Below, piece by piece: positions 3,841 through 45,412 of a stretch of 64,000 nucleotides of DNA. How positions within the stretch are numbered: position 1 is the first letter of the stretch; each line of letters opens with the position of its first letter. The stretch is from positions 82,221-146,220 of the forward strand of contig CAJUMA010000001.1 in assembly GCA_910587065.1 (NCBI GenBank). The letters run 5' to 3'. The position numbers and the translations under genes are program-made. A model generated the notes under the pieces. That model was not told the DNA's origin and made no database searches. It saw only the letters and a program-made list of their open reading frames with translations. Origin of the DNA: an uncultured Bacilli bacterium. Lineage in GTDB: Bacteria > Bacillota_I > Bacilli_A > RF39 > UBA660.

Positions 3841-5268
3841 GAAGTATTATTGACTTAGAAACAATAGAAATAGACCAAAATTCATCTGGCGTATTTATTG
3901 ACAGACTAAGTCAAGATACATCAAATATTGCAGAAGTATTTAGAACAATTTTTAAAAGATTAAATATAATTATTACTAATGTAGGTATACTATTTGCTGT
4001 ATTTACCATTAATAAACTAATCTTTTGATATTTTGTAATTGCTTTATTTATTATGTTTAATTTTGAAAGAATGTATTTAATCAAACATTTTGAAAGACAA
4101 AAATCTTTTAAAAAAATAAAGGAAGCTAACACAGGATTAGTATCTGAACTTGTTCGCGGCATTAGAGACATTAAAGTATTAAATTGTTATTCGGATTTTG
4201 AAAATAAAATTTATAATAAACTTAAAAAAGCGAATAAGCTTCAATATCAAATGTCCGAAACTACTAAAAGATATGAGTTGTTACGAGAATTTTTAAAGAA
4301 TTTCTTCAACTATATTTTTATTTTACTTGGTATATATCTAGTAATTAAAGGAAATTTACTTGCATCTAGTTTTGTTATTCTTTTTATGTATAGCGATAAG
4401 ATCTTCGACTTTTTGGTTACCATTATTGATTTATTAGAAGTATTAAAAGATTTTAATTTATCTTCCGAAAGAGTATTTGAAATCATTGATGGCAAATATA
4501 AAAAAGAAGAATTTGGTACTCAAATTGTTAAAAGTTTAAACGGTGATTTTAAATTTAAAAATGTAAATTTTGGATATAGAAAAGATCATATGGTTATTAA
4601 GAATATGAATTTAGAAATACCAGCTTTTAAGACCACGGCCATCGTAGGTGAAAGTGGAGCCGGTAAAACTTCTGTTTTTAATATGATCACAAAATTATAC
4701 AGAATAAACAGTGGTAAAATCACGATTGATGGTATAGATATGGATGAACTTACAGAAGAAAGTTTACGAGGAAATATTTCATTAATTACCCAAAACCCAT
4801 ATATTTTTAATTTTTCGGTTAAAGAAAATTTTCAAATTGTTAAAAAAAATGTAACCATGAAAGAAATAGAAGAAGTTTGTAAAAAAGCATGTATTCATGA
4901 TTATATCATGTCTCTTCCAGAAAAGTATGATACACAACTAGGAGAAGGAGGAGTAACTCTTTCAGGTGGGTAAAGACAAAGAATTGCAATTGCTAGGGCA
5001 TTACTTACAGATACAAAAATAATACTTTTTGATGAAGCAACTTCTGCTCTAGACAACGAAACTCAACAAAATATAACAAAAGCAATAAACAATTTACAAG
5101 GGAACTATACTATTATTATCATTGCTCACAGATTATCTACAATAAAAGAAAGTGATCAAATTGTAGTTATGAAAGAAGGAAAAGTAGTAGGTGTTGATAC
5201 CCATAAAAATCTTCTTCAAAATAATCAATATTATCAAAAATTATATGCCAACGATATGAAAAGATAAT
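3841..5268 (+). pseudogene. ABC exporter (fused permease-ATPase, MsbA/LmrA-type) pseudogene: 5'-truncated with two in-frame stops
   Basis: Translation begins inside the transmembrane domain (...IEIDQNSSGVFIDRLSQDTSNIAEVF...), so the first ~110 aa are absent. In-frame TGA at ~4036-4038 inside the hydrophobic segment INKLIF*YFVIALFIMF. Walker A GESGAGKTS is present. Signature reads LSGG*RQRIAIARA, with TAA at 4973 replacing the Gln codon of LSGGQ. Walker B ILFDEATSALD and H-loop IIIAHRLST follow in the same frame to the stop at 5268. Confidence 0.75.
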
Positions 5269-5320
5269 AGTTATTTGTAAAAATTTTAAGGAGATAATTA
5301 AAATTTATTTAACCAATAAG

Positions 5321-5347
5321 TTAGCCACTACAACTGTGGCTTTTTTT
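5321..5347 (+). terminator. rho-independent terminator
   Basis: AGCCACTACAACTGTGGCT hairpin followed by T7 directly after the ABC remnant. The same GCCACA...TGTGGC hairpin type is reused after rpmH. Confidence 0.5.
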
Positions 5348-5402
5348 CATTTATATATCAAAAAACTCGAAACATTAAAAATTTTCGAGTTTACTATCTC
5401 TC

Positions 5403-5759
5403 TGGTGGAGTCGAGCGGAATTGAACCGCTGTCCAAGTTACTCTTCTAAATAGCGTCTACAAGTTTAGTTAAAACTTTAATTTTCATAAATGATATAAGC
5501 TTCTAACAAACAAATCATTTACTATCTTATAAGTATTCACTTACTTCATATAAGAACTAAAATAAGTATATTCCATATTTATGAACCGAATAATTTAACT
5601 ATGGAAGAATTAAACTATCAGCCTCCTTGCTAACTATTAAGCAAATACTGGAGAAAAATTAAATTTATTGTCAGTTAATTTTAAACTTTTGCCACTTAGG
5701 ATTGGCTACCACTTGCAACTAAGTCAAGACTATAACCTGTCGAAACCAAGTACGACCCC
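5403..5759 (-). ncRNA. ssrA: tmRNA (SsrA)
   Basis: Minus-strand RNA starts GGGGUCGUACUUGGUUUCGACAGG (RC of 5736-5759) and ends GCGGUUCAAUUCCGCUCGACUCCACCA (RC of 5403-5429), a tRNA-Ala-like acceptor/T-arm plus CCA. Internal tag frame GGC AAA AGU ... GUA UUU GCU UAA UAG predicts tag (A)GKSLKLTDNKFNFSPVFA followed by a double stop. Confidence 0.85.
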
Positions 5760-7116: not shown

Positions 7117-7638
7117 TTAACGAGGATAACCAACATACATCATTCCTTTTCCTAAAATACCTCCAATACCATTCTTTCCATACTTAGTCTTACTAAGTAG
7201 TTCTTTTATGTCGATTTGTTTGTCTCTCTCTGTTAAAGAAATATTAACAGCGATAACTGCTGGATCTAAAGCATGAATATTTACTCTTTTAGGACTAGAT
7301 GCAAAATTTGCTCCACTTTTAATTAAATCTTCATAATCACTTTGACACGCTCCGGCAATAATCACGAGTTTCTCATGTGATTTTTCAAATTCACGAGCTT
7401 TTATAATTGTATCCCTAAAATATTTCGAATTTTTATAATTGTTAATATTAGACACATCGCCAGTTTTTGAATCATAAGCATCATGTCCAGTTATAACTAA
7501 AATATCTGGTCTTGTATCATTTAACAATTTAGTTATTTGATTTGGCATATCTGACTCTTGAATTTTTTTACCAATTGCTAAACAATCACATTCTTTATAA
7601 AAATCTAAAGACTTATTTAAATAATCTACATCACCATC
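7117..7638 (-). CDS. yabG: sporulation protease YabG (peptidase U57), C-terminal fragment of a gene split by an intervening element
   Basis: RPDILVITGHDAY...NYKNSKYFRDTI...LVIIAGACQSDYEDLIKSGANFASSPKRVNIHALDP matches the B. subtilis YabG C-terminal half. Homology continues 30 codons upstream of the first Met (DGDVDYLNKSLDFYKECDCLAIGKKIQESD) with no start codon, then ends at a TAA at the element boundary. Confidence 0.75.
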   Translation of the reverse strand, partial: DGDVDYLNKSLDFYKECDCLAIGKKIQESDMPNQITKLLNDTRPDILVITGHDAYDSKTGDVSNINNYKNSKYFRDTIIKAREFEKSHEKLVIIAGACQSDYEDLIKSGANFASSPKRVNIHALDPAVIAVNISLTERDKQIDIKELLSKTKYGKNGIGGILGKGMMYVGYPR

Positions 7639-7724
7639 TGCTGTCTTTTTTTATGTAACAATTTTTTTAAAAATAAAGATTTATTATACTTTTTATGCTA
7701 TAATAACTTAAAGAAGGTGTTAGT

Positions 7725-8714
7725 GTGACTAAAATAAAGGAGTTTGTCGAAGATAATAAGCCTATTGCTATACTTTCAATTCTTACATTTATCGCGTTTA
7801 TTATCGGAATTGTTATATGTTTTGGAACAGACAATAAACATATTAATAAAGAAAAAAAGGTATTAGAAGAAAATTCCTATACTATGTATTATAAAGAAGA
7901 TGCAATTGTTAAATTTACCTTTAGAGAAAGTTTTTATAAATGTGGGAATTCTGTTTGTAGTGAGTACACTGAAAGAATCTCTAACTTTGAACTAGTTAAT
8001 GAACAAGCAAAAAACTTATATTCTAATGTTAACATAAAAAATAAAGATCTTGATGAGGCTGTTGGTATTTTAATTAACGAAGCAAAAAACAAAAGCCATA
8101 TCGTTCAATCACTTCAATTAATAGGTGATTGGAAATCACGTTACAATGAAGAAGAATTTAAGATATTACTAAAAGATCATCTTACAGAAATTCCAAATTT
8201 CCCAATTGCTTTTGAATATCGAGAACAAGTAGATGACCAAACGGTGATGGAAACAATTGCTAAAAAAACTTATACTGTAACTTTTGATAGTAATTTTGGT
8301 TCACCTGTAGACCCTCAAATTATAACCGAAAACGAATTAGCTGTCGAACCACTTGCACCTACAAGAGAAGGATATGACTTTGTTAGATGGCAATTTAATA
8401 GCAGACCATACAGTTTTGAAACTCCTGTTACAAAAGATATAACTTTAAAAGCATCATGGAAGAAAAAACCAACAGTATCAACAATACAAACAACTACTAA
8501 AAAAACCACCACTGCAAAGCCCGCTGGTGATACTGAAAAACCAAATACGGGAGATAATAATAAACCTGAAACAGAAAATCCAAATAAGCCAGAGACTCCA
8601 AGTCCAGGTGACAATAATCCACCAACTGAACCTGAAAAGCCTGTTGAAAAGCCTGATGAGCCTAGTAAGCCTGATGATAATAAGGGTGAAGAAAACCAAG
8701 GAACAACTGAATAA
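7725..8714 (+). CDS. membrane-anchored protein with Listeria-Bacteroides repeat (Flg_new) domain and Pro/Thr-rich C-terminus
   Basis: GTG start with RBS GAAGGTG. N-terminal TM (IAILSILTFIAFIIGIVICFG). TYTVTFDSNFGSPVDPQIITENELAVEPLAPTREGYDFVRWQFNSRPYSFETPVTKDITLKASW fits the Flg_new/Listeria-Bacteroides repeat. PxxP-rich tail. Extended -10 TGcTATAAT upstream. Hairpin terminator at 8714-8738. Confidence 0.6.
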   Translation: MTKIKEFVEDNKPIAILSILTFIAFIIGIVICFGTDNKHINKEKKVLEENSYTMYYKEDAIVKFTFRESFYKCGNSVCSEYTERISNFELVNEQAKNLYSNVNIKNKDLDEAVGILINEAKNKSHIVQSLQLIGDWKSRYNEEEFKILLKDHLTEIPNFPIAFEYREQVDDQTVMETIAKKTYTVTFDSNFGSPVDPQIITENELAVEPLAPTREGYDFVRWQFNSRPYSFETPVTKDITLKASWKKKPTVSTIQTTTKKTTTAKPAGDTEKPNTGDNNKPETENPNKPETPSPGDNNPPTEPEKPVEKPDEPSKPDDNKGEENQGTTE

Positions 8715-8738
8715 AAGGACTAATAAGTCCTTTTTTTA
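8714..8738. terminator. bidirectional hairpin terminator
   Basis: AAGGACTAATAAGTCCTTTTTTT between convergent genes. Confidence 0.5.
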
Positions 8739-10139
8739 ATGAAAACTATACTTTACTATAATTTGTTCATCAATGTATATACTTTCAACAAGTTCTTTTT
8801 TAACTAACTTGTCTATAGAATTTTTATACAAGATATCAATATCATCCATCTTAAAGTTAGTAACATTATCAAACATTTTCAGCAAAGTCTTTTTCTTATT
8901 GTCTATTGATTTTTTTACTTTTTTAAAGTCTTGTTGTGTTATTTCACCACTATAATTCTTTATATAGGCTTCTTTTAATTTTAAATCATTAACTCTAATT
9001 TTTTCCCTAATACTATCTTTTATTGATTCTATATAACATTTGATTTTAGAAAAACAGTTGTTAATAACCATCCGTTTATCAACATCTGCAACTAAATTAC
9101 TAATATTTTCATCAATAGCTACTAATATTTTTTTTAAAATAATACTTTTTAAACATTTAGAACATTTAAAATAATACTCTAGTTTATTATTTTTATGCTT
9201 TTGATAGCATCTCATATAATTACCACACTTGTTACAAAATACTTTGTTCTCAAACATTACTTTTTCTTTTGCTTTTCTATAATTTTTGTATTTCTTTAAT
9301 CTATTATTAACTTGTAAAAATAACTCTTTATCAACAATAGATGGAAAGACATTTTCTATTATCTGATAATCACTTGGTCTAATATATTTTCTTTTTTTAT
9401 CCTTGTAATTATATTTATAAGACTTTCTAACAACTAAATCGCCCTTATACACGGGATTTTCAAGTATTCTACGAACTTTTCTATTATTCCATGTATTTGT
9501 AGCTGTTTTTTTGTTTTTCACCTTTAAATCATCTAATAATATGTTATTTAAATAAACAGCTATATAATTTAAACTATAACCATTAAAATTTAAATTAAAA
9601 ATGTCTTTTACGATACTTGCTTCATTTTCATTTATAGAAAGGGTTCTTAAACCATTAAAATAAAATATATCATAACCAAAAGGAGGATAAGGACCAATAA
9701 ATTCATGGTTCAAAGTTTTATTAATAGCTACATTTCTTCTTTTTAAAGAGGCTTCTTTCACATAGTAATCATTCATGATAGAGTGAATATTAACTAATAC
9801 CCTATTAGTTGTATCCTCATTATTAATAGAAATTAATAGAACATTATGTAACTTAAAATATTCATTTATATAATAACTAGATAAAAAAAGTTCTCTTCCA
9901 AGCCTTGATATATCCTTAACTATCACCGTGGAGATTAGTCCCAATTCTATATCTTTTTTTAATTTTAAAAATGCTTCCCTACTAAAATCAATCCCCGATA
10001 TACCATTATCAACATATATATCATCTAATTTTAAATTATTTGAATTACAATAATCTTTAATTAAACTTATTTGATTACCAATACTATTTCCATTATCTTT
10101 AACCGAAACACGAACATATCCCACAATAAACTTATTCAA
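8736..10139 (-). CDS. large serine recombinase (resolvase/invertase N-domain + recombinase domain + zinc ribbon)
   Basis: Catalytic-Ser motif GYVRVSVKDNG near the N-terminus. DISRLGRE motif. C-terminal Cys pairs CNKCGNYMRC...CSKC. Long coiled-coil tail. Probable TTG start at 10139 preceded by GGAG; the ATG-initiated ORF in the track reaches 10184 and overlaps the upstream gene. Confidence 0.85.
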   Translation of the reverse strand: MNKFIVGYVRVSVKDNGNSIGNQISLIKDYCNSNNLKLDDIYVDNGISGIDFSREAFLKLKKDIELGLISTVIVKDISRLGRELFLSSYYINEYFKLHNVLLISINNEDTTNRVLVNIHSIMNDYYVKEASLKRRNVAINKTLNHEFIGPYPPFGYDIFYFNGLRTLSINENEASIVKDIFNLNFNGYSLNYIAVYLNNILLDDLKVKNKKTATNTWNNRKVRRILENPVYKGDLVVRKSYKYNYKDKKRKYIRPSDYQIIENVFPSIVDKELFLQVNNRLKKYKNYRKAKEKVMFENKVFCNKCGNYMRCYQKHKNNKLEYYFKCSKCLKSIILKKILVAIDENISNLVADVDKRMVINNCFSKIKCYIESIKDSIREKIRVNDLKLKEAYIKNYSGEITQQDFKKVKKSIDNKKKTLLKMFDNVTNFKMDDIDILYKNSIDKLVKKELVESIYIDEQIIVKYSFH

Positions 10140-11634
10140 AATTACTCCTAAATTTATAAAAAATTCTAACCATCTTATGATCATCTATCGTAATCTTTGA
10201 TATCAATCTACCAATAACTTCTTTTTTTTGAATATTTAAACCTTCTTTTATAATTAGGTCGATCGTAGGCACATTGTTTTTAAATATACCCATCATTCGA
10301 CTTTTCTCATCATTAAAATATTCTAAGTCCGAGTTAAGTGAGTTATTTATAATCTCAAAATCGGATTCATCAACTATACCTTCTAATTTATCCTTATACA
10401 ATTGAATTTTCATAGCAGACAGCCTTTTTATTCTAGTATTTATATTATTTAAAACATATTCACGCTTTTCTTTAAAAGTAGCATTAAATATTTTTTTTAC
10501 CAAATTATTTATATCTATATTTTTCATTAACTCAGCCAAATTAGAAAAAAGAATATTATTTAATATTTCCTCTCTAAAATAATGCATTGAACACACATTA
10601 TCACGGTATTTTGCATATGTCCTACAACAATATATACTCGATGATTTTAGTCTCCTTACCAACATGGTTGACGAACACTCATTACAACATACAAACCCTT
10701 TAAGTAAATAATCATATTTTCTTCTTCTTACATGCCCACTTTTTGATAAACTATTGACCAAGTTAAATTGTTCTCTATTTATTATGGGCTGATGATTATT
10801 TTCGATTTTTATCCATTCATCTTCTTTTAACAATCTTTTTCTTTTCGATTTCAAACTAACTCTTTCATATTTTTTTTGAACAAGAGTACCAATATAAACA
10901 ACGTTTTTTAATATATAGCTAACTGTTGCTGGTTTCCAGATTGTACTAAAAAAGGTTTTATTTAAATCTCTATTATTATAAATATTAGGTGGCATTACTT
11001 TTTCATGAGTTAACTTCCTAGCAATTATTGTTGTACTCAAACCCGCTTCTTTCATTGAAAATATCCTTTTTACTATTGAAGACGCATAATCATCTATTTC
11101 TAATATTCGTGAATCTATTAAAGACCTTTTATAGCCATAAGGAACTGTACTTCCGAGAAAATATCCTTTACGCATCAAATCATGTCTTGATGACTTAATC
11201 TTTTTGGATATATCATTTAAATACATATCATTTAAAACAGCTTTAAATGGAATAATATCATCACTCAAAGTTGGAATTAAAGAATCATAATTATCAAGTA
11301 TTGCTATATATCTTATACTATTATCGGGAAAAAATTTATAAATATATTCTCCCGTTCCAATAAAATCTCTTCCAAGCCTTGATATATCCTTTGTTATTAC
11401 ACAGTTTACTAACTCATTTTTTATATCTAAAAGAAGTCTCTTAAATGAAGGCCTATCAAAATTTCCACCCGAATAGCCATCATCAATATAATAATCATAT
11501 ATTTGAATACCTTTATTCAAACAATAATCTCTAATTATATTTTTCTGATTAACTATACTTGTACTAACATTTTCTTCTTTACTCTCAGAAACAGATATTC
11601 TTACATAAACAGCCGCAATATACTTACTCTCCAT
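10132..11634 (-). CDS. large serine recombinase
   Basis: 500 aa. N-terminal AAVYVRISVSES catalytic-Ser motif, DISRLGRD, recombinase domain, CCNECSSTM...CC zinc ribbon/coiled coil. Directly upstream of and co-oriented with the second LSR. Confidence 0.85.
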   Translation of the reverse strand: MESKYIAAVYVRISVSESKEENVSTSIVNQKNIIRDYCLNKGIQIYDYYIDDGYSGGNFDRPSFKRLLLDIKNELVNCVITKDISRLGRDFIGTGEYIYKFFPDNSIRYIAILDNYDSLIPTLSDDIIPFKAVLNDMYLNDISKKIKSSRHDLMRKGYFLGSTVPYGYKRSLIDSRILEIDDYASSIVKRIFSMKEAGLSTTIIARKLTHEKVMPPNIYNNRDLNKTFFSTIWKPATVSYILKNVVYIGTLVQKKYERVSLKSKRKRLLKEDEWIKIENNHQPIINREQFNLVNSLSKSGHVRRRKYDYLLKGFVCCNECSSTMLVRRLKSSSIYCCRTYAKYRDNVCSMHYFREEILNNILFSNLAELMKNIDINNLVKKIFNATFKEKREYVLNNINTRIKRLSAMKIQLYKDKLEGIVDESDFEIINNSLNSDLEYFNDEKSRMMGIFKNNVPTIDLIIKEGLNIQKKEVIGRLISKITIDDHKMVRIFYKFRSNFE

Positions 11635-11752
11635 TTATTTCCTTTAATAGATTTTCTTTAATATAGTCTAATAAGATTTCTTCTATAAGCTCGCTTAAAC
11701 TAGGTCCAGTATCATCAAAAATAGTAATTACTTCATTTTCCTTATTCTTCAT
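11627..11752 (-). CDS. 42-aa ORF translationally coupled to the upstream LSR (possible directionality or regulatory factor)
   Basis: ATG...MKNKENEVITIFDDTGPSLSELIEEILLDYIKENLLKEINGE; its TAA overlaps the ATGGAGAGTAA start of the recombinase. Below the ORF-track size cut-off. Confidence 0.3.
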
Positions 11753-11834
11753 ACATATTCCCTCATAAATAATTTATGAAATAAATTATTTATAAGAACC
11801 AAAAAACCAGCTAGAGTATTCTAACTGGTTTATA

Positions 11835-14800
11835 TTATTTTTTTACATACAATCTTACTAAAATAGCTACGAAGAACAAGAATATTACTAAACAACCTAT
11901 AACAATCTTATAATTAATTCCAAATCTCGAAGTTTCATTATTTTCTTCATCTTGTGTTTCTGGAGCCTTTATTTCAATATGATCAGTTTTCGAAACTGCG
12001 CTAGTTGTTGTAGTTTTATCTTCTTCAGTTTTATTAGTAGTTGTTGTTTGTTTATTTTGACTGTTTGCAGTTGTTGTATTACCAATACCTTTATTAGGAT
12101 TATTAACAATTGTACTTCCGCCATTAATTGGTTTAGAATCAATTGTTGGAATACTTGGTTTTGGATCTACAGGTTCAACTGGTTTTTCTGGTTGAACTGG
12201 ATCAACTGGTTTTTCTGGTTTTTCTGGAACACTAGGATCCACAACGTCCTCGGTTATCCAACTCACAGTCGCTGTTGCAGTTCCTTTGTTTCCAGCCTTA
12301 TCTACAAACTCAAATGTAAATTTGCCATTCTTAGTAAATACATATGTGAACTTGCCATCATTATTTAGCACTGTTACATCTTCATTTGTTTTTAATGTAA
12401 CAATAATACTTTCATAAGTTGGTTTAGTTATTGAATAAGATATTTCTCCAACTGGAGCACTCTTATCTATCCAATCAACTATAGCAACCGCACTTCCTTT
12501 ATTTCCTGCTTTGTCCACAAACTCGAATACAAATTTGCCGTTCTTAGTAAATACATAAGTATTTAAGCCATTATTGTTTAATATTGACACTCCATCTTCA
12601 ATTACTAATGTTGCTGTTACATCTTTGTTTGTTAAATCCTTAACATTATATGTTACTTTGCCTATTGGAGCACTCTTATCAATCCAATTCACAATAGCTT
12701 CGGCAGTTCCTTTGTTTCCAGCTTTATCAACAAACTCAAACACAAATTTACCATTGTCTGTAAATACATAAGTAGTTAAACCGTTATTATTTAGTACTGT
12801 TACATCTTCATTTGTCTTTAATGTAGCAATAACTTGTCCATTTGTAATAGTAGTCAAACTATACTCAACTATTCCAACTGGAGCAACTTTATCAATCCAA
12901 TCCACTTTAGCTGTTATGGTTTCTCTGTTTCCATAAGCATCAGCTATTATAAAATCAAATTTTCCATTCTCCTTGAAAGTATAAGTATTTAAACCACCAT
13001 TATTTATGATTCTAACACCTTCACCTACTTCTAATGTTACTATTACATCTTTGTTTGTAGCAGAGGATTCGCTATAGACTAATTTACCAAACAGATTTGG
13101 GTTGACAATCCAATCCACTTTAGCTTTAACGCTTCCCTTATTTCCTGCTTTGTCCACAAACTCAAATGTAAATTCTCCATTTTGAGTAAATGTATATTTT
13201 AGTGAACCACCATTATTAGTTATTGTAACATCTTTATCAACACTTAATGTTGCTGTTACAGGACCTTCGGTTTTTTCACTTATGTCATATGTTATTTTTC
13301 CTTTTGGAGCAACCTTATCTATCCAGTTAACAGTTGCTACTGCAGTTCCTTTATTTCCTGCATTATCTACAAATTCAAATGTAAATTCGCCATTATTTGT
13401 AAATGTGTATGTTCTAGAACCATTATTATTAGTAATTGTAATTCCATCCCCAACATTTAATGTTGCTATTACATCTTTATTTGTTAAACTTGTAATATTA
13501 TAACTTATCGTTCCAACTGGAGCTTTCTTGTTTATCCAATCTACTTTTGCAGTTGCAGTTCCTTTGTTTCCAGCTACATCGACAAACTCAAAAGTGAATT
13601 CTCCGTTTTCACTAAACCTATATGTTTTTAATCCACCATTGTTTGTAACAGTTACCCCATCCGCAACGGTAAGGGTTGCTACTACATCCTTATTTGTTAG
13701 AATTGTTATATCATAACTTATCGTTCCAACTGGAGCATTCTTGTTTATCCAATCTACTTTTGCTGTTATACTTCCTGTATTTCCAGCTAAATCTCTAAAC
13801 TCAAAAGTGAATTCTCCATTTTCACTAAATACATATTTTGTTGAACCATTATTATTTGTTACTATTGTTTCTTCATTAGTAATTAATGTAACTTCAACAT
13901 TCTTATTTGTTATATCTTTTGTGCTATATACTAAAGAACCTTTAGGTGCAACTCTATCAATCCAATTAACTGTTGCTGTAGTTGTTCCTCTATTACCAGT
14001 GGCATCAACAAATTCAAACGTAAACGATCCATTATTATTAAATGTATATGTTTTAGAACCGTTATTATTTGTTACTGTTACGCCTGCTGCTACATTAAGT
14101 GTTGTAACAACATTTTTATTTGTTGGAGTTGTTATATCATAAGTTACATTTCCTGATGGAGCCTTCTTATTTATCCAAGTAACGTTTGCAGTTGCTCTTC
14201 CTGTATTTCCAGCTTCATCGACAAATTCAAATGTAAATTCGCCGTTTTCTGTAAATATATATGTTTTCTTACCATCATTATTTGTTACTGTTACTTCTTC
14301 GCTTGGAATTAATGTTACAATAACATCTTCATTTGTTATATCTCTTGTTCCATATTCAATTGTTCCAGTTGGAGCAATCTTATCTATCCAAGTAACAGAT
14401 GAATTAATTGTACCAGTATTTCCAACTTCATCAGTATATTCGAACACGAAAGTTCCATTTTCATTAAATGTATAAGTTTTACTTCCATTATTGTTTGTTA
14501 CTGTTATTTCTTTATCAGAAATTAATGTAGCAGTAACGGAAGTATTTGTCTTATTAGTAGTACTATATTCAATACTTACATGTGGAGCAACTTGACTACG
14601 ATCTTCATATAAGTTAATCATAGCTGCTGATGCAAATATATCATATGTATCAACTTCAAATTTTACATATTGTCCATATACGCTTTCATCAAATGTTATT
14701 TTTCTCATTTCATTATCTTGTGGACAATTCTCAATGCTTCCTGCTAAGTTCCAGTCTTCACCATCTAAACTTACAAATACTCGAGCATTTTTGATAAAGT

Positions 14801-17800
14801 CTGGGTCAACACTCCTATATTTCTTTTGAATAAATTCAAGAGCTGAAATATATCTTGGAGCATCTAATTTAATTGTAACAAATGGTTTTACAGTTTGAGT
14901 CAATACTGAATATCTAAAATCAGTATGCCATAAAGTGTTTGGATTTCCATCAATTACATTAGGAGCATAGAAAGGTCTAGAAGAATCAATTGATTGAGTA
15001 GAATAACCATGTATTGATAAATGCTTAATAGGAATATATTTTTCTGTATCAGGTTGATTATCTTCTGTAAATTCATACTCTAATACATTACTTGCAACTG
15101 AAGTTGAAGTTGCTTTATTTCTTAATTGAAGTACTCTATCACCAGTAACTACTGGCTCTACATCAGAATAAGATGTCCACTCAGTAGTATCTGAATATTT
15201 CCATTCAAGTTTCGACACATCACCTAAGGCAATAAGTCTATTTTCTAAATCATTAACATAAGGATCAAGCGTTAATTCATCTGCTTCCTTAATTTTTATA
15301 GAATATTCAGTTTCATCTCCACTTAATTTTATTTTTATTCCATTTTCTGGAGAAATTTTATTAAGAGTCTCTTTTGATAATTGTGCATTATTACCAGTAA
15401 CAGTAATCCATGTAGCACCACCATCAACTGAATATTTCCATTCATTAGTATAATCTGAATCATTTAAAACTATCTTACCAGCATTATTTCCATCAAATGA
15501 GAAACTTGCAACAACCTTAACTGTTTTATTCTCATAAAAGTTAAACATAGCACCTGCTATAAAACTCATACTTGCGCTTACAGCTTGAGTCTTTTTACCA
15601 ACAATTTTAATATATTGCCCTCTTACAGGTTCAAAATCAATTGTTTTTACAGAAACATCGTTTGTATTTCTATAAGTCCAATCTGTTTCAGCTGCTTCAG
15701 TATAGTTTATTCCATCCATACTAACTAATATTTGCGCTTTTTCAATTTTTCCATTACCACCAGCTAAAGGATAATAATCCATAGCAGTTATATTTTTTGG
15801 TTCATCTAATTTAATAACTATTTCTTTTTTTCTATCGCTACCATCCCAAGCTGAGTGCCAATTTGTATGTATATTACCATCTATAATATTTCTAGCATGT
15901 CGCCCTTGTCCTGTAGCTTCTGATGAAACACTATTAATAGAAAGATGAGAAATTGATATATATTTTCTAGTATCTGGTTGAACATTATTAGTAAAATGAT
16001 ATGTAACTGAATTTGTATCAGCTAAATACAACCCTGTTGCTCCAGCTTTAACAATTACATCTCTATCTCCAGATAAATCTGGTTCCTCATCTTTATAATA
16101 AGTCCAATCATCCGTTTCATTATATTTCCATAACATTGTTGGAACAGAAGCAATTAATTTATCCTCTAAATCGTTAGCATATAAATTTCTAGGTAATCCT
16201 GCAGAATTTAATATGTCGATTTTATATAAATTTTCTTCCGAATAATTTACTCCAACTATATGAATATAAATATCATTTTCTGCTGTTATACTAGCAATTT
16301 GTTCTTGAGTTAATTCAAGTTCATGAGCTTCTTCACCTGTGAATGAAACTTCATTCCAAGTATTCTTTCCATCTAAACTATAATCCCATCTAATTCCGCT
16401 TCCATCAAATCTCTTTGATAGGACAATTTTATTTGCTTTGTCTCCATCAAACGAGAATGTCGCTAAAGTAGAATCAAATTGACCTAAAAGATATGATGCT
16501 TCAACTCTAGTAACTCCAGGTTGTAATACATCTGTACCTTGATAATTCTTTGCTCTAGTTAATGTATCAGTAACTAATAAAGAATATTTAAATTGATAAG
16601 CATTTGATGTAAATTTAGGTTTTAGTAGGGAAGATAGTTGATAGAATGGCAAAGGATATTCTAAGAAACTATCACTTAATTCTTCAACTAAGTTGAAATA
16701 ATCTTCTTCAGTTTTAGTTGAATCATTATTGTATAATTCAATTAATTTATACCAAGCATCAACATTAAAATCTAACGCTGATATGGAAGCACGAAGATAT
16801 TCTTCATACTTGCTTGTATTATCCTTATAACTATTCGCTATCATTAGTAACTCACTAGATCTTTGATAATCAGCAAATCTATTTACGGCTTCTTGAGCCA
16901 TTACCATATAAGGAATTGTATAACCAGTTGCATATCTTCTATCATTTCCCCATCCAAGAAGCATTCTTTCACCCTTCTCAGATAAAGTCCATCCACTAAC
17001 ATCATTATCAATTCCCCAGTAACCTTGTCCATTTGTATTTTGTGAATAATATAAAAGTGCAGCATGTCCAGGTTGACCAATTACGGTTGCAGGAATACCA
17101 TGAGTAGCACGAATATTTGAACCAGACTTAGAGATACCTCCACAAACAGCACCTGTTCCAAATTTATTTCTAAAGTTCATCCACACTTTATAAAGTTTAT
17201 AATCGTTTGTTCCTCTAGTAACCTTGATAGTATATTCTGGACTGTCCTTTCCACCTGGAATGGTGTAAGTCAAATCCCATAATCCAATTTTCTCATCTGG
17301 ATTTTCTTTGTTTGGAACTGCAAATAATTCGTTGAAATAATCTTTGTTAGCTTCATCATAATATACACTATTTCCATAATTTGGCCATACATATGCCATA
17401 TATGGATGTGGTGTCAAAAGAGATCCAACACTACCAGGAGCTGCATCAATTCTTGATTGTACGTAATCATTAAGCCATAAAATTGATTCATCATCTATTA
17501 AGTTATTCATAACAAAACGCATTGTTTCAATTGGTAGCGACTCAAACATTGGTGTCATATCGACACTGTCTGTAGCCTTAAATCTACCATTTTTATGCAT
17601 AAACTTATAAATAGCATATCTAACTACTGCATCCGATTGATTTTCTGTCGAATTTTGCATCCATAATCTTACTGTTCCTGAATGAGTTAAAGAAAGTGAG
17701 AGAGCCATCTTTTTATAAAGATCTCCATAAGTTAGTGTGGCATCCCATTTATTATTAAGAAGTGTATTATTGCTAAAATCTTCTTTATAGTTATAATATA

Positions 17801-18791
17801 ATCTATTTAATTCTACTATAGATTTATAATAGCTTCCATCAGGTTTTCCACCCATAACATATAATCTCAAATTTTCTAAATCAGTCATTAACCATTTGAT
17901 TGTTTCATTATACGAAGAATTAAATGTTGCCATATTTTGCAATAAATCATATGTTGCATTATTAACAAAATCTCTTTGTAACACTATTAATTCTTGTTCA
18001 TTTGTTAAGTTAGATGATGGAAAATTTTTAATCATCTCATCATACTGCTCAACTGTTTTTATGTAATCCACTGTGTTTGAAGGCTCTTCATATCCAGCTT
18101 TTATAAGTTTTGCATCCGCTAAAACTGAATGATCATTACTTTCATTTCCACAATTTTGAATTACAAATTTAATGTATTTTACATCTTTAACAGGATATTT
18201 AAGGAAAAAAGCATCCCTATCTCCTTTAAATACCGCATTATTGTTGACTCTTTCTCTAAGAGTCCAAGTCTCGCCATCATCCGATGTGTGAATTTCGAAT
18301 CTAACACCATTACCTGCTGAGCCAACGCTTGCGTCAACTCCTAAATAAGCTGTTAGATAGTCATAGTCGTATCCACTAAGGTCATAAGCAACGGTTGCAT
18401 TTGCATGTGCTAAAATACCTTTCATAAACATTTTTCGTCTACCATCAACATTAACAGTAATTAACCCTCCGGATAAATTCTTGTCTAATTGAATCGTACT
18501 ATAAGATGTATATGATATTCCAGGCATATAAGGAATATCAGAAAGGTAAACCATATCCGTGGCGTTAGCTTTCGCTTGTGCATTAGTATCTTCAGCCTCT
18601 GTTGAATTTAAGTTAAATTGATTTTCAATCTCACTTTCATTAGCCAAAGTGCTTGTATTTCTATTCATTAGAACACTCATATTTGAGAGGCTAGGCCCCA
18701 GAGTTACAAGTGTTAAAAGTATTACAGATAATACAATCGTACTAATTATGTCGTGCTTATATCCTTTGGATCGTAAACACTTAAATTTCAT
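11835..18791 (-). CDS. giant (2318 aa) multidomain surface protein: signal/TM - NPCBM - transglutaminase-like core - 2x F5/8 type C (discoidin) - 11 tandem ~71-aa repeats - Pro/Thr stalk - C-terminal TM anchor
   Basis: N-terminal hydrophobic segment. Residues ~80-232 VYLSDIPYMPGISYTSY...GILAHANATVAYDLSGYDYDYLTAYLGVDASVGS...DHSVLADAKL match the NPCBM/NEW2 domain. Residues ~540-600 GTGAVCGGISKSGSNIRATHGIPATVIGQPGHAALLYY...GIDND match the transglutaminase core (Cys-His-Asp). IDGNIHTNWHSAWDG and IDGNPNTLWHTDF mark discoidin domains. Repeats VTVTNNNGSKTYTFxENGxFTFEFVDxAGNKGTAxAxVxWIDKxAPxGxIxY x11. PEKPEKPVDPVQPEKPVEP and a T-rich linker. C-terminal IVIGCLVIFLFFVAILVRLYVKK with no LPXTG. Confidence 0.85.
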   Translation of the reverse strand: MKFKCLRSKGYKHDIISTIVLSVILLTLVTLGPSLSNMSVLMNRNTSTLANESEIENQFNLNSTEAEDTNAQAKANATDMVYLSDIPYMPGISYTSYSTIQLDKNLSGGLITVNVDGRRKMFMKGILAHANATVAYDLSGYDYDYLTAYLGVDASVGSAGNGVRFEIHTSDDGETWTLRERVNNNAVFKGDRDAFFLKYPVKDVKYIKFVIQNCGNESNDHSVLADAKLIKAGYEEPSNTVDYIKTVEQYDEMIKNFPSSNLTNEQELIVLQRDFVNNATYDLLQNMATFNSSYNETIKWLMTDLENLRLYVMGGKPDGSYYKSIVELNRLYYNYKEDFSNNTLLNNKWDATLTYGDLYKKMALSLSLTHSGTVRLWMQNSTENQSDAVVRYAIYKFMHKNGRFKATDSVDMTPMFESLPIETMRFVMNNLIDDESILWLNDYVQSRIDAAPGSVGSLLTPHPYMAYVWPNYGNSVYYDEANKDYFNELFAVPNKENPDEKIGLWDLTYTIPGGKDSPEYTIKVTRGTNDYKLYKVWMNFRNKFGTGAVCGGISKSGSNIRATHGIPATVIGQPGHAALLYYSQNTNGQGYWGIDNDVSGWTLSEKGERMLLGWGNDRRYATGYTIPYMVMAQEAVNRFADYQRSSELLMIANSYKDNTSKYEEYLRASISALDFNVDAWYKLIELYNNDSTKTEEDYFNLVEELSDSFLEYPLPFYQLSSLLKPKFTSNAYQFKYSLLVTDTLTRAKNYQGTDVLQPGVTRVEASYLLGQFDSTLATFSFDGDKANKIVLSKRFDGSGIRWDYSLDGKNTWNEVSFTGEEAHELELTQEQIASITAENDIYIHIVGVNYSEENLYKIDILNSAGLPRNLYANDLEDKLIASVPTMLWKYNETDDWTYYKDEEPDLSGDRDVIVKAGATGLYLADTNSVTYHFTNNVQPDTRKYISISHLSINSVSSEATGQGRHARNIIDGNIHTNWHSAWDGSDRKKEIVIKLDEPKNITAMDYYPLAGGNGKIEKAQILVSMDGINYTEAAETDWTYRNTNDVSVKTIDFEPVRGQYIKIVGKKTQAVSASMSFIAGAMFNFYENKTVKVVASFSFDGNNAGKIVLNDSDYTNEWKYSVDGGATWITVTGNNAQLSKETLNKISPENGIKIKLSGDETEYSIKIKEADELTLDPYVNDLENRLIALGDVSKLEWKYSDTTEWTSYSDVEPVVTGDRVLQLRNKATSTSVASNVLEYEFTEDNQPDTEKYIPIKHLSIHGYSTQSIDSSRPFYAPNVIDGNPNTLWHTDFRYSVLTQTVKPFVTIKLDAPRYISALEFIQKKYRSVDPDFIKNARVFVSLDGEDWNLAGSIENCPQDNEMRKITFDESVYGQYVKFEVDTYDIFASAAMINLYEDRSQVAPHVSIEYSTTNKTNTSVTATLISDKEITVTNNNGSKTYTFNENGTFVFEYTDEVGNTGTINSSVTWIDKIAPTGTIEYGTRDITNEDVIVTLIPSEEVTVTNNDGKKTYIFTENGEFTFEFVDEAGNTGRATANVTWINKKAPSGNVTYDITTPTNKNVVTTLNVAAGVTVTNNNGSKTYTFNNNGSFTFEFVDATGNRGTTTATVNWIDRVAPKGSLVYSTKDITNKNVEVTLITNEETIVTNNNGSTKYVFSENGEFTFEFRDLAGNTGSITAKVDWINKNAPVGTISYDITILTNKDVVATLTVADGVTVTNNGGLKTYRFSENGEFTFEFVDVAGNKGTATAKVDWINKKAPVGTISYNITSLTNKDVIATLNVGDGITITNNNGSRTYTFTNNGEFTFEFVDNAGNKGTAVATVNWIDKVAPKGKITYDISEKTEGPVTATLSVDKDVTITNNGGSLKYTFTQNGEFTFEFVDKAGNKGSVKAKVDWIVNPNLFGKLVYSESSATNKDVIVTLEVGEGVRIINNGGLNTYTFKENGKFDFIIADAYGNRETITAKVDWIDKVAPVGIVEYSLTTITNGQVIATLKTNEDVTVLNNNGLTTYVFTDNGKFVFEFVDKAGNKGTAEAIVNWIDKSAPIGKVTYNVKDLTNKDVTATLVIEDGVSILNNNGLNTYVFTKNGKFVFEFVDKAGNKGSAVAIVDWIDKSAPVGEISYSITKPTYESIIVTLKTNEDVTVLNNDGKFTYVFTKNGKFTFEFVDKAGNKGTATATVSWITEDVVDPSVPEKPEKPVDPVQPEKPVEPVDPKPSIPTIDSKPINGGSTIVNNPNKGIGNTTTANSQNKQTTTTNKTEEDKTTTTSAVSKTDHIEIKAPETQDEENNETSRFGINYKIVIGCLVIFLFFVAILVRLYVKK
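12254..14594. repeat. 11 tandem ~213-bp coding repeats inside the giant protein gene
   Basis: Periodic near-identical protein units VTVTNNxGxKTYxF...WIDKxAP... The repeated DNA also produces the spurious antisense ORFs at 12574-14142 in the track. Confidence 0.8.
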
Positions 18792-19065
18792 TTCATAATC
18801 CCCCCATTTATCGAAATTTAGAGCATATTATAGCACATTTTTCGATAAATGCAAGTTTTTCCACTCTCCTTTCTTATAAATTATATTCATCTATATAAAA
18901 TAGTGACTAATTCTAAATTATCACTATTTTATACCAAATATTAAATTGTTTAAAAACTATTCTTTTTATCTATATATATTAAACCATATTTTAGCATTAA
19001 AGTAAATATTCACATGAGATTTAAAAGGTACAAATATATACATATTATTACATAAAAAAAGGCAG

Positions 19066-19312
19066 CATCAATATGAAGAATTTTACCAGGGAGATAAAAA
19101 TACTCATCTCGGTCCAATAATTCATTGCTTATTTCTGGACGATAATCATCAACTCTCTCAGCAATAGTCAAATCATCTAAATTAGCATCAGCATAAAGTC
19201 TCACATCAGCCCCCTTTAAGTAAGCTACATCATCTTTAATATCAACCACTATAAAAACAACATCATTGTTATAACTATTTCTAGTAACAATAGAGCCTTT
19301 TTCTATTTTCAT
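19066..19312 (-). CDS. yabG: sporulation protease YabG, N-terminal fragment (split gene)
   Basis: MKIEKGSIVTRNSYNNDVVFIVVDIKDDVAYLKGADVRLYADANLDDL...DEYFYLPGKILHID aligns with B. subtilis YabG residues 1-~115 (MQFQIGDMVARKSYQMDVLFRIIG...HMPGKVLHLD). Homology stops at HID; the remaining 16 codons of the tracked ORF (AAFFYVIICIYLYLLNLM*) are element-derived. Confidence 0.75.
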
Positions 19313-19353
19313 AAACCTCACCTATGGTATATTATGCCAAAAGAAAAAAGTGT

Positions 19354-20373
19354 TTAACACTTTTCTAAAAATTTACTTGGACAAAAATCATTGGTAAAAG
19401 ATACAGCAATATGGTTTAAATTAGCAAAAACCATTTCATCTTGATCACTATATTTAGAGAAATATTCCTCTAGAGAAACATTTTCATAATACGATTTATT
19501 TAATAGCTTATTATCTCTATTACTTATATCAAAATTATAAAAAATATCATCTATCATAAGCATTACTTCTTCATCATTTATATTAAGACGATAAATATCT
19601 TTAGATTTCAATATTTCATCCATTCTGTTTCCTAATCCTTTATATGGTGGATATCTAAAAAAATAAATATAGCTAGCTCCAAATGGACCTCGAAAAGTTT
19701 CTAGTGCCTCAATTATATCTTCTCTACTTAAATCACATTCTTTCATACCATGGAATTTATCTATATTCCAAGCTCCAACTATACGGTACTTATACTTATC
19801 AGCATATTTATCAAATAAATCATACATTTTATTATCATAAAAATATTTTAAACTAAAAAGACCCTTAGATAAATCAGCACTTTTATCAACAAGATGATAA
19901 AAATAAAGAGGACTATTTAATTTTATAAGTTTCTGTGACTGACAATATAACAAAAACTCTATTGACTTCATCTTTTTCTTTGGCTTCTCATATTCATACA
20001 TAAAAACTTCACTAGTAGAAGAAAAATCTTTAATAAGTTTTTCTTTCACATCTAATAGTAAATCTTGCAAAGAAGCATATTCATGAATTCCTGTATATAG
20101 CTCCCATGCATGCTCAAACCAAAAGTAAGAATGTCCTTTTTTATATATAATAAAGGTATGCGTTTGAAATTTTCCTTTGTCATCACTCAATGCCACATAA
20201 TAAGAAGTAACAGTTATTCCATATTGATAAAATAACTCTCTTTCTAATTCAACTTGTTCCCAACAATTTCCTTCCTTTTTATCTAAAACTTCTGTTGCGC
20301 TATAAATATATGTATCATCATCTATCCACCTATAATTAATGTCTTGAAGTATTTGCATTATTTTTATATCCAT
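19354..20373 (-). CDS. hypothetical protein with possible transglutaminase-like Cys/His motif
   Basis: 339 aa. EGNCWEQVELERELFYQYGIT...HTFIIYKKGHSYFWFEHAWELY resembles the GxC...GI...HAW transglutaminase-like core. Sits between rsmA and yabG-N. Confidence 0.4.
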   Translation of the reverse strand: MDIKIMQILQDINYRWIDDDTYIYSATEVLDKKEGNCWEQVELERELFYQYGITVTSYYVALSDDKGKFQTHTFIIYKKGHSYFWFEHAWELYTGIHEYASLQDLLLDVKEKLIKDFSSTSEVFMYEYEKPKKKMKSIEFLLYCQSQKLIKLNSPLYFYHLVDKSADLSKGLFSLKYFYDNKMYDLFDKYADKYKYRIVGAWNIDKFHGMKECDLSREDIIEALETFRGPFGASYIYFFRYPPYKGLGNRMDEILKSKDIYRLNINDEEVMLMIDDIFYNFDISNRDNKLLNKSYYENVSLEEYFSKYSDQDEMVFANLNHIAVSFTNDFCPSKFLEKC

Positions 20374-34824: not shown

Positions 34825-34847
34825 AAATTTATCACCTCATAAAAAAA

Positions 34848-34918
34848 GCACACACAAACAGAGGCTAATATGGCTGCTATCTTCCGATCCTGACCAGTTT
34901 ATAACATATTTGTTGTGC
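34848..34918 (-). ncRNA. ffs: putative small SRP RNA (4.5S/scRNA-like, single hairpin)
   Basis: Minus-strand GCACAACAAAUAUGUUAUAAACUGGUCAGGAUCGGAAGAUAGCAGCCAUAUUAGCCUCUGUUUGUGUGUGC. Terminal helix GCACAACAAA/UUUGUGUGUGC. Apical CAGGAUCGGAAGAUAGCAGCC matches the SRP domain IV consensus CAGGNCCGGAAGGNAGCAGCC, including the GGAA tetraloop. Followed by U7. Lies next to tadA/dnaX as scr does in Bacillus. Confidence 0.45.
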
Positions 34919-35100
34919 AAATTAATTATATCACATATAAATTATATTTAAAGTGTTTTATTTAACATATTTTATTTTTTTGTTTATAAGTAACTAGAAA
35001 ATAGCAGTTTTACTATTTTTGTTTATTTATTTCAACCAAAATTTAATATTTGTACTATTTTTTTGAGTTTTTAGATGCAAATAAATAAAATTTGTTTTTT

Positions 35101-38207: not shown

Positions 38208-38217
38208 ACTTTACCTC

Positions 38218-41221
<3,004 letters not shown>

Positions 41222-41322
41222 TTTAACCCCCTTAATTTCAATTTTAAATGATTTTTAAGTTATTAGTGTACACCTATACCACATACTAATTATATCACAA
41301 TATAGATATTTAAAAAAGAATT

Positions 41323-41781
41323 TTATGCTCTATAGATTCTTTTTTTCTTTAAATAATGTTCCAATTGCATAGATTTTAAAAGCTGATTGTTAATAATATT
41401 TAAACTTACATTAAATTCTACTAAAGTATTATTGTTAAATACTATAACTGAAACTTTTTTTAAGACATTATAATACGTCTTATCAACATTCATCATATTT
41501 ATCCAAGCAACAGAACTTAACCTTGGAGATGAAGTAGGGAAGAAAATAAGTTTATTTGAGCCACTTACTAATATTGGTGTTTTATAACTTGTACCTGTTA
41601 TCTTTTCAGCACTTTTTAGTCTACCATCAAAAGTACTTCCGTATCTCATACAATTTCTTTTAATTATATTGTTAGGTTTAGCATTAACAATAATCATTTT
41701 CTCACCTTCATAAACTAAAGACATTTTTTCTCCACACGGCAAAATAGCCAATGTTTCCTTATTAATAATATAATTATCCAT
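41323..41781 (-). CDS. comK: ComK-family competence transcription factor homologue
   Basis: 152 aa. LAILPCGEKMSLVYEGEKMIIVNAKPNNIIKRNCMRYGSTFDGRLKSAEKITGTSYKTPILVSGSNKLIFFPTSSPRLSSVAWIN is colinear with B. subtilis ComK (IAVLPEEIDGK...YVNMKPLQIVDRSCRFFGSSYAGR...KPPIMVDPSNQIFLFPTLSSTRPQCGWIS). Confidence 0.7.
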   Translation of the reverse strand: MDNYIINKETLAILPCGEKMSLVYEGEKMIIVNAKPNNIIKRNCMRYGSTFDGRLKSAEKITGTSYKTPILVSGSNKLIFFPTSSPRLSSVAWINMMNVDKTYYNVLKKVSVIVFNNNTLVEFNVSLNIINNQLLKSMQLEHYLKKKRIYRA

Positions 41782-41867
41782 GTTCCACCTCCGTTCTTGG
41801 GTGGATAGACTACCACAAGAAAAGAGAAAATTTTGTCGAAAAAAAGGAACTATATAAATAATTCCTT

Positions 41868-42989: not shown

Positions 42990-43137
42990 TTAAATTCCTT
43001 CTTTCTAATTTATTATTTATTATATTGTTATTATTATTAGGGTTGAAAAAGTTGATAACTTCATTTTCTCTAAATATTTCGGCTTTTTTTTCAAAACTTT
43101 TTAGATTTAATTGTTAAAAACTATCAACTTATTAACA

Positions 43138-45404: not shown

Positions 45405-45412
45405 GTGAATAT

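Follow-up and report, generated by a model that had tools for sequence, protein, structure and literature searches.

An apparently excisable element with two large serine recombinases splits the sporulation gene yabG in uncultured gut Bacilli

The window, by which we mean the whole 64,000-nucleotide stretch analyzed here (contig CAJUMA010000001.1 of assembly GCA_910587065.1, from an uncultured Bacilli bacterium), contains the sporulation protease gene yabG in 2 pieces, separated by an element that encodes a pair of large serine recombinases (LSRs), LSR-A and LSR-B. We are confident that precise excision of this element restores yabG. The best and a likely explanation is that it is a domesticated, non-viral gene-intervening element of the skin, SPbeta, gin, and yin kind, from a family dedicated to one site in yabG, and excision is probably linked to the mother cell during sporulation. 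An original prediction, made from the letters of this DNA, had proposed an intervening element of the skin/SPbeta type. Its LSR-encoding element, attP-like arms, and restorative excision have stood, with an empty site in a sister species added to them, and the sporulation timing is the part that depends on inference.

Both pieces of yabG are on the minus strand. The 5′ segment (yabG-N, 19066..19312) is an ORF (open reading frame) that starts at 19312 with MKIEKGSIV and runs for 82 codons through GKILHID at 19067, after which the sequence is unrelated. The 3′ segment (yabG-C, 7117..7638) opens with GATG at 7638-7635 and is read from 7635 to 7117 as GDVDYLNKS...GMMYVGYPR, 173 codons counting the stop. 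The break point is at codon 82, HID/GD, the stroke marking the junction here and below. Copies of GATG at 19069-19066 and 7638-7635 have 11,427 bp between them, which makes the excisable unit 11,431 bp. When the halves are joined in silico, they are in frame and give a protein of 254 aa matching Pfam Peptidase_U57/YabG (PF05582) at E = 2.9 × 10−87. The 5′ segment is identified by its translation, by this match of the joined protein, and by colinearity with intact relatives, and the 3′ segment by Pfam and by a ratio of nonsynonymous to synonymous divergence (dN/dS) of 0.03-0.06 against orthologous split copies. Over 25 relatives have an uninterrupted yabG, with the junction protein GKILH[IL]DGDxDYL and the DNA CATATWGATGGNGAT, identical to the predicted join. 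Because the intact relatives share that protein sequence at this point, the insertion falls within the most conserved motif of yabG (HxDGD). The original prediction had the strand, the spacing, and both GATG copies right, and its expectations that the join would be colinear with intact YabG and that uninterrupted relatives would display the predicted junction were borne out by the Pfam match and by those relatives. The integrated arrangement is found again in independent assemblies, namely 2 ENA mouse-gut metagenomes, a Logan assembly, and the NCBI metagenome-assembled genome (MAG) GCA_948536525.1, and since these carry the identical arrangement, the split is not an assembly artefact.

The ends of the element have the appearance of the 2 arms of an attP site. 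They are terminal inverted repeats, as the original prediction had described, GCTGCCTTTTTTTATGTAATAA and GCTGTCTTTTTTTATGTAACAA, with 20 of 22 positions matching, extendable to 31 nt at 84%, with the arms exactly at the 2 junctions; the pair ranks among the longest inverted pairs of the region. At the left end, the P′ arm of attL (19037..19067), one of the 2 repeat arms, reads GCTGCCTTTTTTTATGTAATAA..., and at the right end, the P arm of attR (7639..7669) reads ...TTGTTACATAAAAAAAGACAGCA on the minus strand and then GATG. The arm motif TTACATAAAAAAAGRCAGC is confined to these 2 ends within the window, and 2 or more matches were found in 0 of 100 shuffles. Recombination is predicted to leave an attB junction of ...CTTCATATTGATGGTGATGTAGAT... 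and an attP junction of ...AAAAAAGACAGCAGATGCTGCCTTTTTTT.... When attP is reconstructed in 7 diverged elements, a common palindrome is obtained, TTACWTAA-N5-6-CAGC-AGAT-GCTG-N5-6-TTAWGTAA, and because its center of symmetry is AGAT, the crossover dinucleotide is most likely GA (19069-19068), the first 2 bases of the Asp codon. The GATG that had been proposed as the crossover is retained as surrounding microhomology, which is AGAT in some relatives, with the crossover narrowed to the central GA. A composite of 2 nested elements was also considered and rejected, there being no internal copy of the att arm, and the LSR genes overlapping and co-occurring throughout the family.

The empty site was sought by building the predicted rejoined YabG for 6 elements and looking up the exact sequences in a collection of 15 billion proteins. 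The rejoined YabG of the sister species (locus L085) is present exactly (P0241). Its contig, L261 (ENA ERZ28569417, 1336 bp), has an uninterrupted yabG-spoVG with the junction CATATTGAT/GGTGATATAGAT (/GGTGAT). On the C side, this contig and the element-bearing MAG L021 have 4 differences in the 1011 nt of flank that they share (99.6% identity), and on the N side, 2 of 325 nt distinguish the contig from L085. The matching C-fragment, representing the integrated form, is on at least 1000 contigs. The predicted attB exists naturally, as a rare form, in a species where the element is normally present.

A search of 5.8 billion proteins found no intact YabG more than 80% identical to that of the window, the closest full-length one being at 80%, and the copies closer than this (84-96% identity) are all fragments split at residue 82. 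The element appears to be fixed in the clade of the window and to co-diverge with its hosts, and pairwise identities of host and LSR-A have a Spearman correlation of 0.85. When element-bearing species are compared, yabG-N has a dN/dS of about 0.10 and yabG-C one of 0.03-0.06 at dS of 0.8-2.3, a constraint comparable to that on the neighbors spoVG, yabP, and divIC. LSR-A has dN/dS of 0.17-0.33 and LSR-B of 0.29-0.54, and all element ORFs are intact between these species, in a genome of 27% GC where random stops are frequent. Strong purifying selection on both halves (dN/dS 0.03-0.10) argues that the split yabG must be reconstituted.

LSR-A (10132..11634, minus strand, 500 aa) has the Resolvase, Recombinase, and Zn_ribbon_recom domains (PF00239, PF07508, and PF13408), each significant in Pfam, and its nucleophile motif is YVRIS with Ser14. 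LSR-B (8736..10139, minus strand, 467 aa) has YVRVS with Ser12; PF00239 and PF07508 are significant, and PF13408 is weak (E = 0.009), yet the CxxC...C cysteines are invariant. The two are 28% identical over their full length, and the start of LSR-B overlaps the stop of LSR-A by 8 nt. Both have the YxRxS nucleophile motif, SRLGR, and the zinc-ribbon cysteines. Residues Y10, R12, S14, SRLGR, and the Cys are invariant in 19 homologues of LSR-A, and Y8, R10, S12, S78, R79, G81, R82, and the Cys in 12 homologues of LSR-B. The element had been said to encode 2 LSRs, and both are complete. Lesions in the recombinase genes, named at the time as a sign of a dead insertion, are absent, the catalytic Ser and Arg being kept across a deeply diverged family. 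The closest solved structures are TnpX, SprA (YokA), and the TP901-1 integrase, and the SprA match at E of about 10−12 is a distant kinship. The nearest phage LSRs are at most 34% identical and are in unannotated fecal phage contigs, and no characterized close relative was found among the matches. The best NCBIfam matches are CcrB and CcrC, with LSR-A scoring 95 bits and LSR-B 66 bits against CcrB; membership in CcrA/CcrB was rejected because the equivalog cut-off is 900 bits. Membership in XisF, the excisase of the Anabaena fdxN element, was rejected likewise, with about 70 bits for both LSRs against a cut-off of 375 bits, and the analogy to XisF is functional only.

Upstream of LSR-A is a small ORF (11624..11752, minus strand) encoding 42 aa of pI 4.2, MKNKENEVITIFDDTGPSLSELIEEILLDYIKENLLKEINGE, whose stop overlaps the LSR-A start. 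It is conserved in 13 of the 13 elements examined as an acidic protein of 38-44 aa and pI 4.1-5.2, with the motif V..[IV][FY]D[DE].G..[IL]...[IL][IL]E..[FL]..[YF][IL]. The AlphaFold2 model, made from the single sequence, has an extended N-terminus and one helix at residues 19-39 with a pLDDT of 84. There is no PHROG, NCBIfam, or Pfam match above threshold, RHH_1 being a sub-threshold match. LSR recombination directionality factors (RDFs) known so far are small, acidic, and unrelated among themselves (PMC10747680, Fig. S1 legend), and for that reason the small ORF is a plausible candidate RDF or regulator. The small ORF, LSR-A, and LSR-B overlap in series and are probably co-translated.

Control of this operon can be approached from the DNA between it and the cargo gene upstream. 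Of 11 diverged elements, 9 have CATAnnnT, the −10 signature common to the mother-cell sigma factors E and K, at −28..−24 relative to the small ORF, just past the cargo terminator, where the surroundings are unalignable; the nominal binomial p for this placement is about 5 × 10−12, to be read with the fact that the loci are homologous and not fully independent. In the window, the box is CATAAATTA (11778-11770), a putative mother-cell (sigmaE/K-like) −10 of the recombinase operon, from which transcription is predicted to start about 7 nt downstream. The box is overlapped by a perfect 13-3-13 palindrome (11765..11793, minus strand; ATAAATAATTTAT-TTC-ATAAATTATTTAT), which may be an operator of the operon, and the small ORF could instead autoregulate through it. 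The palindrome is not kept as a palindrome in other species, locus L088 having only the right half. The yabG gene has a putative sigmaK-type promoter of its own (19328..19355, minus strand), recognized by inspection as AAACAC (−35 'AC')-N13-CATAATATA (−10, 19336-19328) 5′ of the ribosome-binding site (RBS) GGTGAGG. A CATAnnnT(A) box equally spaced from the RBS is upstream of yabG in most relatives. This box fits the sigmaK consensus of B. subtilis, from which we would assign the promoter to sigmaK. The paper describing yin employs a similar sigmaK consensus and cites B. subtilis yabG as sigmaK-dependent (PMC10747680).

The element spans 7639-19065. Read in the direction of yabG, it consists of attL, some 270 bp of AT-rich DNA that resembles a promoter, a gene for a protein of 2318 aa, a terminator, the palindrome, the 42-aa ORF, LSR-A, LSR-B, a gene for 329 aa on the opposite strand, and attR. 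According to Pfam, the 2318-aa cargo (11835..18791, minus strand) is a membrane-anchored surface protein with an N-terminal signal or transmembrane segment, an NPCBM domain, 2 F5/8 type C (discoidin) domains, about 13 Ig-like repeats, a Pro/Thr-rich stalk, and a C-terminal transmembrane segment; its central 540 aa have no sequence match in PDB. The promoter scan finds an AT-rich sigma70-like region upstream of it at 18800-18960. Orthologues in L085 and L089 are 82-84% identical with dN/dS of about 0.18. This gene (82-84% aa, dS 0.54-0.67, window versus L085 and L089) is much better conserved than the recombinases (42-56% aa), and even the flanking housekeeping genes ksgA and orf339 diverge more than it does (60-64% aa, dS about 1.15), which suggests either unusual constraint or more recent exchange between species by recombination. 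The 329-aa cargo (7725..8714, plus strand), the sole element gene on the opposite strand and conserved within the clade, is a membrane-anchored protein with a Listeria-Bacteroides repeat (Flg_new; Pfam) and a Pro/Thr/Glu-rich tail. A strong intrinsic terminator (11804..11831, minus strand; 12-bp stem and T-run) 3′ of the 2318-aa gene insulates the recombinase operon from it, and an equivalent hairpin is present in all family members. The GC content of the element agrees with that of the host. Pfam and PHROGs find no phage structural, conjugation, or transfer genes in it, and a prophage identity was rejected since no element protein had a PHROG structural match.

The original prediction had treated the element as a single case. 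The element itself stood, but it has many relatives, with which it forms a large conserved family. The module of small ORF, LSR-A, and LSR-B is at the identical yabG codon in 11 of the 11 family members with enough flank, over a range of LSR-A identity of 41-73%, with diverse hosts and differing cargo. In 4 further species representatives, whose YabG-C is 84-91% identical, the break falls at the identical residue, and attR is conserved as GTTACATAA-N5-GAYAGCAGAT/GGTGAT. The same-clade loci L085-L091 have LSR-A only 51-73% identical, yet keep the gene order and cargo of the window. In 4 distant loci (L092, L255, L257, and L259; LSR-A 43-50% identical), the module is in yabG at HxD/GD in elements of 5.6-9.6 kb whose cargo is unlike that of the window, including an Asp/Glu racemase, a dockerin protein, and an AAA_14 ATPase among others. 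Some distant hosts look clostridial, with SipL and YunB adjoining. Two IMG/VR contigs that were first taken as unrelated to yabG end in ...TCAGCAGAT/RGWGAT followed by yabG-C coding sequence. A metagenome scan with the LSR-A profile, done with the over-general peptide KDISRLGRD, was uninformative, returning mostly unrelated LSRs at 33-43% identity, none beside yabG.

Some members of the family have peculiarities of their own. Members on IMG/VR contigs (L176 and L177) have a third, small serine recombinase of 193 aa between LSR-B and attR (L176:3786-4367 and L177:5942-6523), and a MazF/PemK-type toxin (L176:1-342 and L177:2157-2498) with a sigma or helix-turn-helix (HTH) gene upstream of the small ORF; these extra genes are typical features of mobile elements. 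In L043 (43-1966), where yabG is split at the identical codon, attR adjoins 2 multi-pass membrane proteins of 399 and 240 aa, and since neither LSR-B nor a Flg_new protein is next to attR there, the gene order inside the element is not fixed. The attL of L259 (6157-6192) has 36 extra nt between HLD and the P′ arm, encoding a second yabG-like stretch (GDASLQKCNYMS), so that the core beside the P′ arm is GAGT rather than AGAT; this may be the scar of an earlier integration or of an imprecise event, and it may block excision. L259 also has a further LSR of 525 aa with genes of mobile-element type directly upstream of yabG (4013-5590).

Put together as a mechanism, the element would sit in the chromosome of vegetative cells and of the spore germline, dividing yabG at the Asp codon of HxDGD, and the cargo, a glycan-binding-type surface protein of 2318 aa and a membrane protein of 329 aa, would be expressed from its own promoters in that state. 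On sporulation, a mother-cell-type promoter (CATAnnnT) would drive the operon of translationally coupled 42-aa protein, LSR-A, and LSR-B, and the 2 LSRs, which probably work together in a hetero-oligomer and have the small protein for their directionality factor or regulator, would recombine attL with attR at the central GA dinucleotide. The 11,431-bp circle would be released, leaving an intact yabG under its own sigmaK-like promoter to supply the YabG protease that matures the spore coat, and the forespore would retain the element for vertical inheritance. When and in which cell the element is excised, what the small ORF does, and how LSR-A and LSR-B share the work are matters that we infer. 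In its broadest form, which we put forward only tentatively, the proposal is of a deep, vertically inherited family of DNA-level "developmental introns" in uncultured gut Firmicutes, with hosts that include reduced-genome RF39/RFN20/ML615J-28-type Bacilli and some Clostridia. Its members would be specific for the one yabG codon, would depend on an obligate machine of micro-protein, LSR-A, and LSR-B with both recombinases catalytically competent, acting jointly, and under a mother-cell promoter, and would serve as germline-retained carriers of interchangeable surface or accessory cargo.

The alternatives to an excised, domesticated element can be weighed on the same evidence. If the insertion were dead and fixed, yabG would be a pseudogene and the recombinases relics, as might suit a group in which many reduced-genome relatives are reported to have lost sporulation genes (PMC10868615) and a species whose rejoined gene was not found in databases. 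Such decay is very hard to credit, with no stops or frameshifts in the yabG halves, the LSRs, or the small ORF in at least 6 species at dS of about 1 or more and 27% GC, with dN/dS far under 1, and with catalytic residues and att arms conserved; the selection analysis effectively refutes it. Long vertical co-inheritance combined with strong constraint on both the halves and the recombinases is the pattern expected if yabG is reconstituted, and it is hard to reconcile with a dead insertion or a tolerated knock-out. It is just as improbable that YabG works as a split protein, its 2 fragments being produced independently and joining as an active protease with no DNA rearrangement. Both halves are conserved and gene callers give an ORF for each, but the break is within the invariant HxDGD motif, the yabG-C junction has neither an in-frame start codon nor an RBS and the first in-frame ATG is 30 codons downstream, the called starts of the C-half vary by species to give 117-193 aa, no promoter is evident for it, and the conserved recombinases and att sites would be left unexplained.

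An ordinary integrative island using yabG as its attB, excising sporadically for transfer with no developmental control and leaving carriers mostly without YabG, is a better-founded alternative that we nevertheless regard as unlikely. LSR elements often target conserved coding sequences, the cargo is variable and accessory-like, some family members have the MazF toxin and third small serine recombinase, the empty-site contig L261 may be an element-free strain, and yin of Clostridium botulinum excises at all time points (PMC10747680). Such an island is difficult to square with the strong purifying selection on the yabG halves across carriers at near-saturated dS, with an element that appears fixed in its clade and co-diverges with a host whose GC content it matches, with the lack of transfer, conjugation, or phage genes in the window element, and with the conserved mother-cell-type −10 box upstream of the recombinase operon. 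Several points also weigh against our preferred explanation, that of a domesticated element excised in the mother cell. Excision specific to sporulation or to the mother cell is suggested indirectly, by promoter-like motifs, by fixation with vertical inheritance, and by analogy. The hosts are uncultured, and their ability to sporulate would follow from sporulation genes: the window has yabG, yabP, yabQ, and spoVG, and relatives have SpoVT, SipL, and YunB. The promoter was assigned by its motif, no convincing −35 being found upstream of the small ORF, and the role of that ORF as RDF is putative, its weak ribbon-helix-helix likeness fitting a repressor instead. Known systems usually regulate the RDF apart from the recombinase, and here all 3 genes look co-transcribed. 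The lone empty-site contig of 1.3 kb could represent a rare strain that lacks the element and not mother-cell DNA after excision, the 15-billion-protein collection does not contain the rejoined YabG of the window's own species, and a search of IMG/VR for the attP circle junction gave 0 matches.

Mother-cell excision of a gene-intervening element by a serine recombinase is established for sigK (skin), spsM (SPbeta), spoVFB (vfbin), spoVR (vrin), and gerE (gin). The original prediction had considered an intervening element in yabG to be undescribed, and this was mistaken, since yin of C. botulinum V73 was published in 2023 (Douillard et al. 2023, Viruses 15:2431, PMC10747680). Full-text searches for yabG with an intervening element or a serine recombinase gave only that paper and one citing it, so that the tandem-LSR, non-phage architecture and the insertion site are apparently undescribed in the literature searched. 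Like the window element, yin interrupts yabG and encodes an LSR. PCR and sequencing showed that its precise excision rebuilds yabG and releases a circle, and a small acidic protein under a sigmaK-like promoter is its putative RDF (PMC10747680). It differs in being a complete myovirus-like prophage (capsid, portal, tail sheath, terminase, and diversity-generating retroelement; Table S2) of a single strain, with one LSR and a 14-bp repeat (PMC10747680), whereas the window element has 11.4 kb, no phage genes, 2 tandem LSRs, and a microhomology of 4 bp. The att site of yin was deduced from its primer sequences. The att-spanning quantitative PCR primers are between the GAC and LDP motifs, at about codons 176-203 in the numbering of the YabG encoded here and about 100 codons downstream of the site of the window element, and the "unaffected control" amplicon stops at PGKILH, exactly where the window element is inserted (PMC10747680). 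On that evidence, the 2 elements share a target gene and have different attB sites, and in content they are unrelated. The authors of yin stated that no other yabG insertion was present in public genomes (PMC10747680), a statement which the family described here contradicts.

The closest architectural precedent is gin, in gerE of Bacillus cereus ATCC 10987 (Abe et al. 2017, Sci Rep 7:11426, PMC5595907), a non-prophage element in a mother-cell gene with several serine recombinases including a two-gene girAB operon, an RDF (GirX) and recombinase expressed in sporulation, and an attP-like inverted repeat around a central dinucleotide. In gin, a third recombinase, GirC, together with GirX carries out the rearrangement, and girAB is unexpressed and dispensable (PMC5595907); in the window element, the tandem pair are the only recombinases and are conserved with the small ORF family-wide. 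The elements also differ in target (gerE versus yabG), in size (31 genes versus 5 and the small ORF), and in host lineage. Skin (sigK; SpoIVCA) and SPbeta (spsM; SprA/SprB) of B. subtilis and skinCd of Clostridioides difficile have in common with our proposal that LSR excision in the terminally differentiated mother cell rebuilds a sigmaK-regulon or mother-cell gene while the spore keeps the element. They are prophage-derived, with a single LSR, a separately regulated RDF, and other target genes, in contrast to the small size, non-phage cargo, and distantly related LSRs of the window element. For an obligate LSR pair, the closest analogue is CcrA/CcrB of the staphylococcal cassette chromosome (SCC) mec, 2 LSRs about 25-30% identical encoded as an adjacent, co-transcribed pair by a non-phage cassette in a conserved gene. 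LSR-A and LSR-B are not Ccr orthologues and resemble them only in the paired operon, and SCC inserts at the 3′ end of orfX/rlmH with no developmental role and is not known to have a conserved micro-ORF.

As to the host, the window is from an uncultured gut Bacilli lineage and not from an isolate of Bacillus or Clostridium type. Exact copies come from mouse-gut metagenomes, and the organism is carried in, among others, DRR014783, DRR014786, and SRR25391111. The nearest MAGs are labeled as uncultured Bacilli, Erysipelotrichales, Tenericutes, "Mycoplasma sp. CAG:472", and "Firmicutes bacterium CAG:582", labels which suggest the reduced-genome RF39/RFN20/ML615J-28-type Bacilli. The window includes the replication origin, with the GC-skew minimum at about 44-45 kb and the sign change at 43138-46342, between dnaA, dnaN, recF, gyrB, and gyrA on the minus strand (35742-44496) and yidC, mnmE, mnmG, and rsmG-like genes on the plus strand from 45413. 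As in B. subtilis, yabG is about 26-37 kb from oriC, in the classical origin-proximal order metG-tatD-ksgA-(orf339)-yabG-spoVG-yabP-yabQ-divIC, and the window also encodes a class A penicillin-binding protein. The orf339 between ksgA and yabG (19354-20373, minus strand, 339 aa) has no Pfam or NCBIfam match and is in all close relatives at about 60% aa identity; it is presumably absent from the B. subtilis ksgA-yabG arrangement. Of the RNA genes, transfer-messenger RNA (Rfam RF00023, 124 bits) is at 5403-5759 on the minus strand just downstream of divIC, and a small signal recognition particle RNA (RF00169) is at 34833-34929 on the minus strand beside dnaX.

What is apparently new here is the element family itself, its attB in yabG, and a three-gene excision module with tandem LSRs, widespread and apparently domesticated in uncultured gut Firmicutes. 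Elements that interrupt sporulation genes and rebuild them had been described in only a few strains of Bacillus and Clostridium, all of them cultured. With yabG as a recurrent and ancient target of a separate non-viral family in many uncultured gut lineages, seemingly fixed in some clades, programmed DNA rearrangement looks like a general feature of sporulation. If the broadest form of the proposal is true, this would be the first developmentally regulated intervening element to need a heteromeric pair of serine recombinases. The module of a micro-protein and 2 LSRs, with defined att sites of about 50 bp and natural variants, offers a system for learning how LSRs share work and how directionality is set, and it is a possible source of orthogonal tools for genome engineering. 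There is also a consequence for reading the genomes of these organisms, since split sporulation genes will score as missing or as pseudogenes in MAG-based sporulation predictions for uncultured Firmicutes. A survey based on KEGG Orthology (KO) assignments has found yabG reduced or absent in the uncultured order ML615J-28 and from this inferred altered spore coats (PMC10868615). A split yabG could score as absent in this way, and, if the element works as we propose, calls of an absent yabG and an altered spore coat in these lineages may in part be artefacts of a gene that is carried in 2 pieces.

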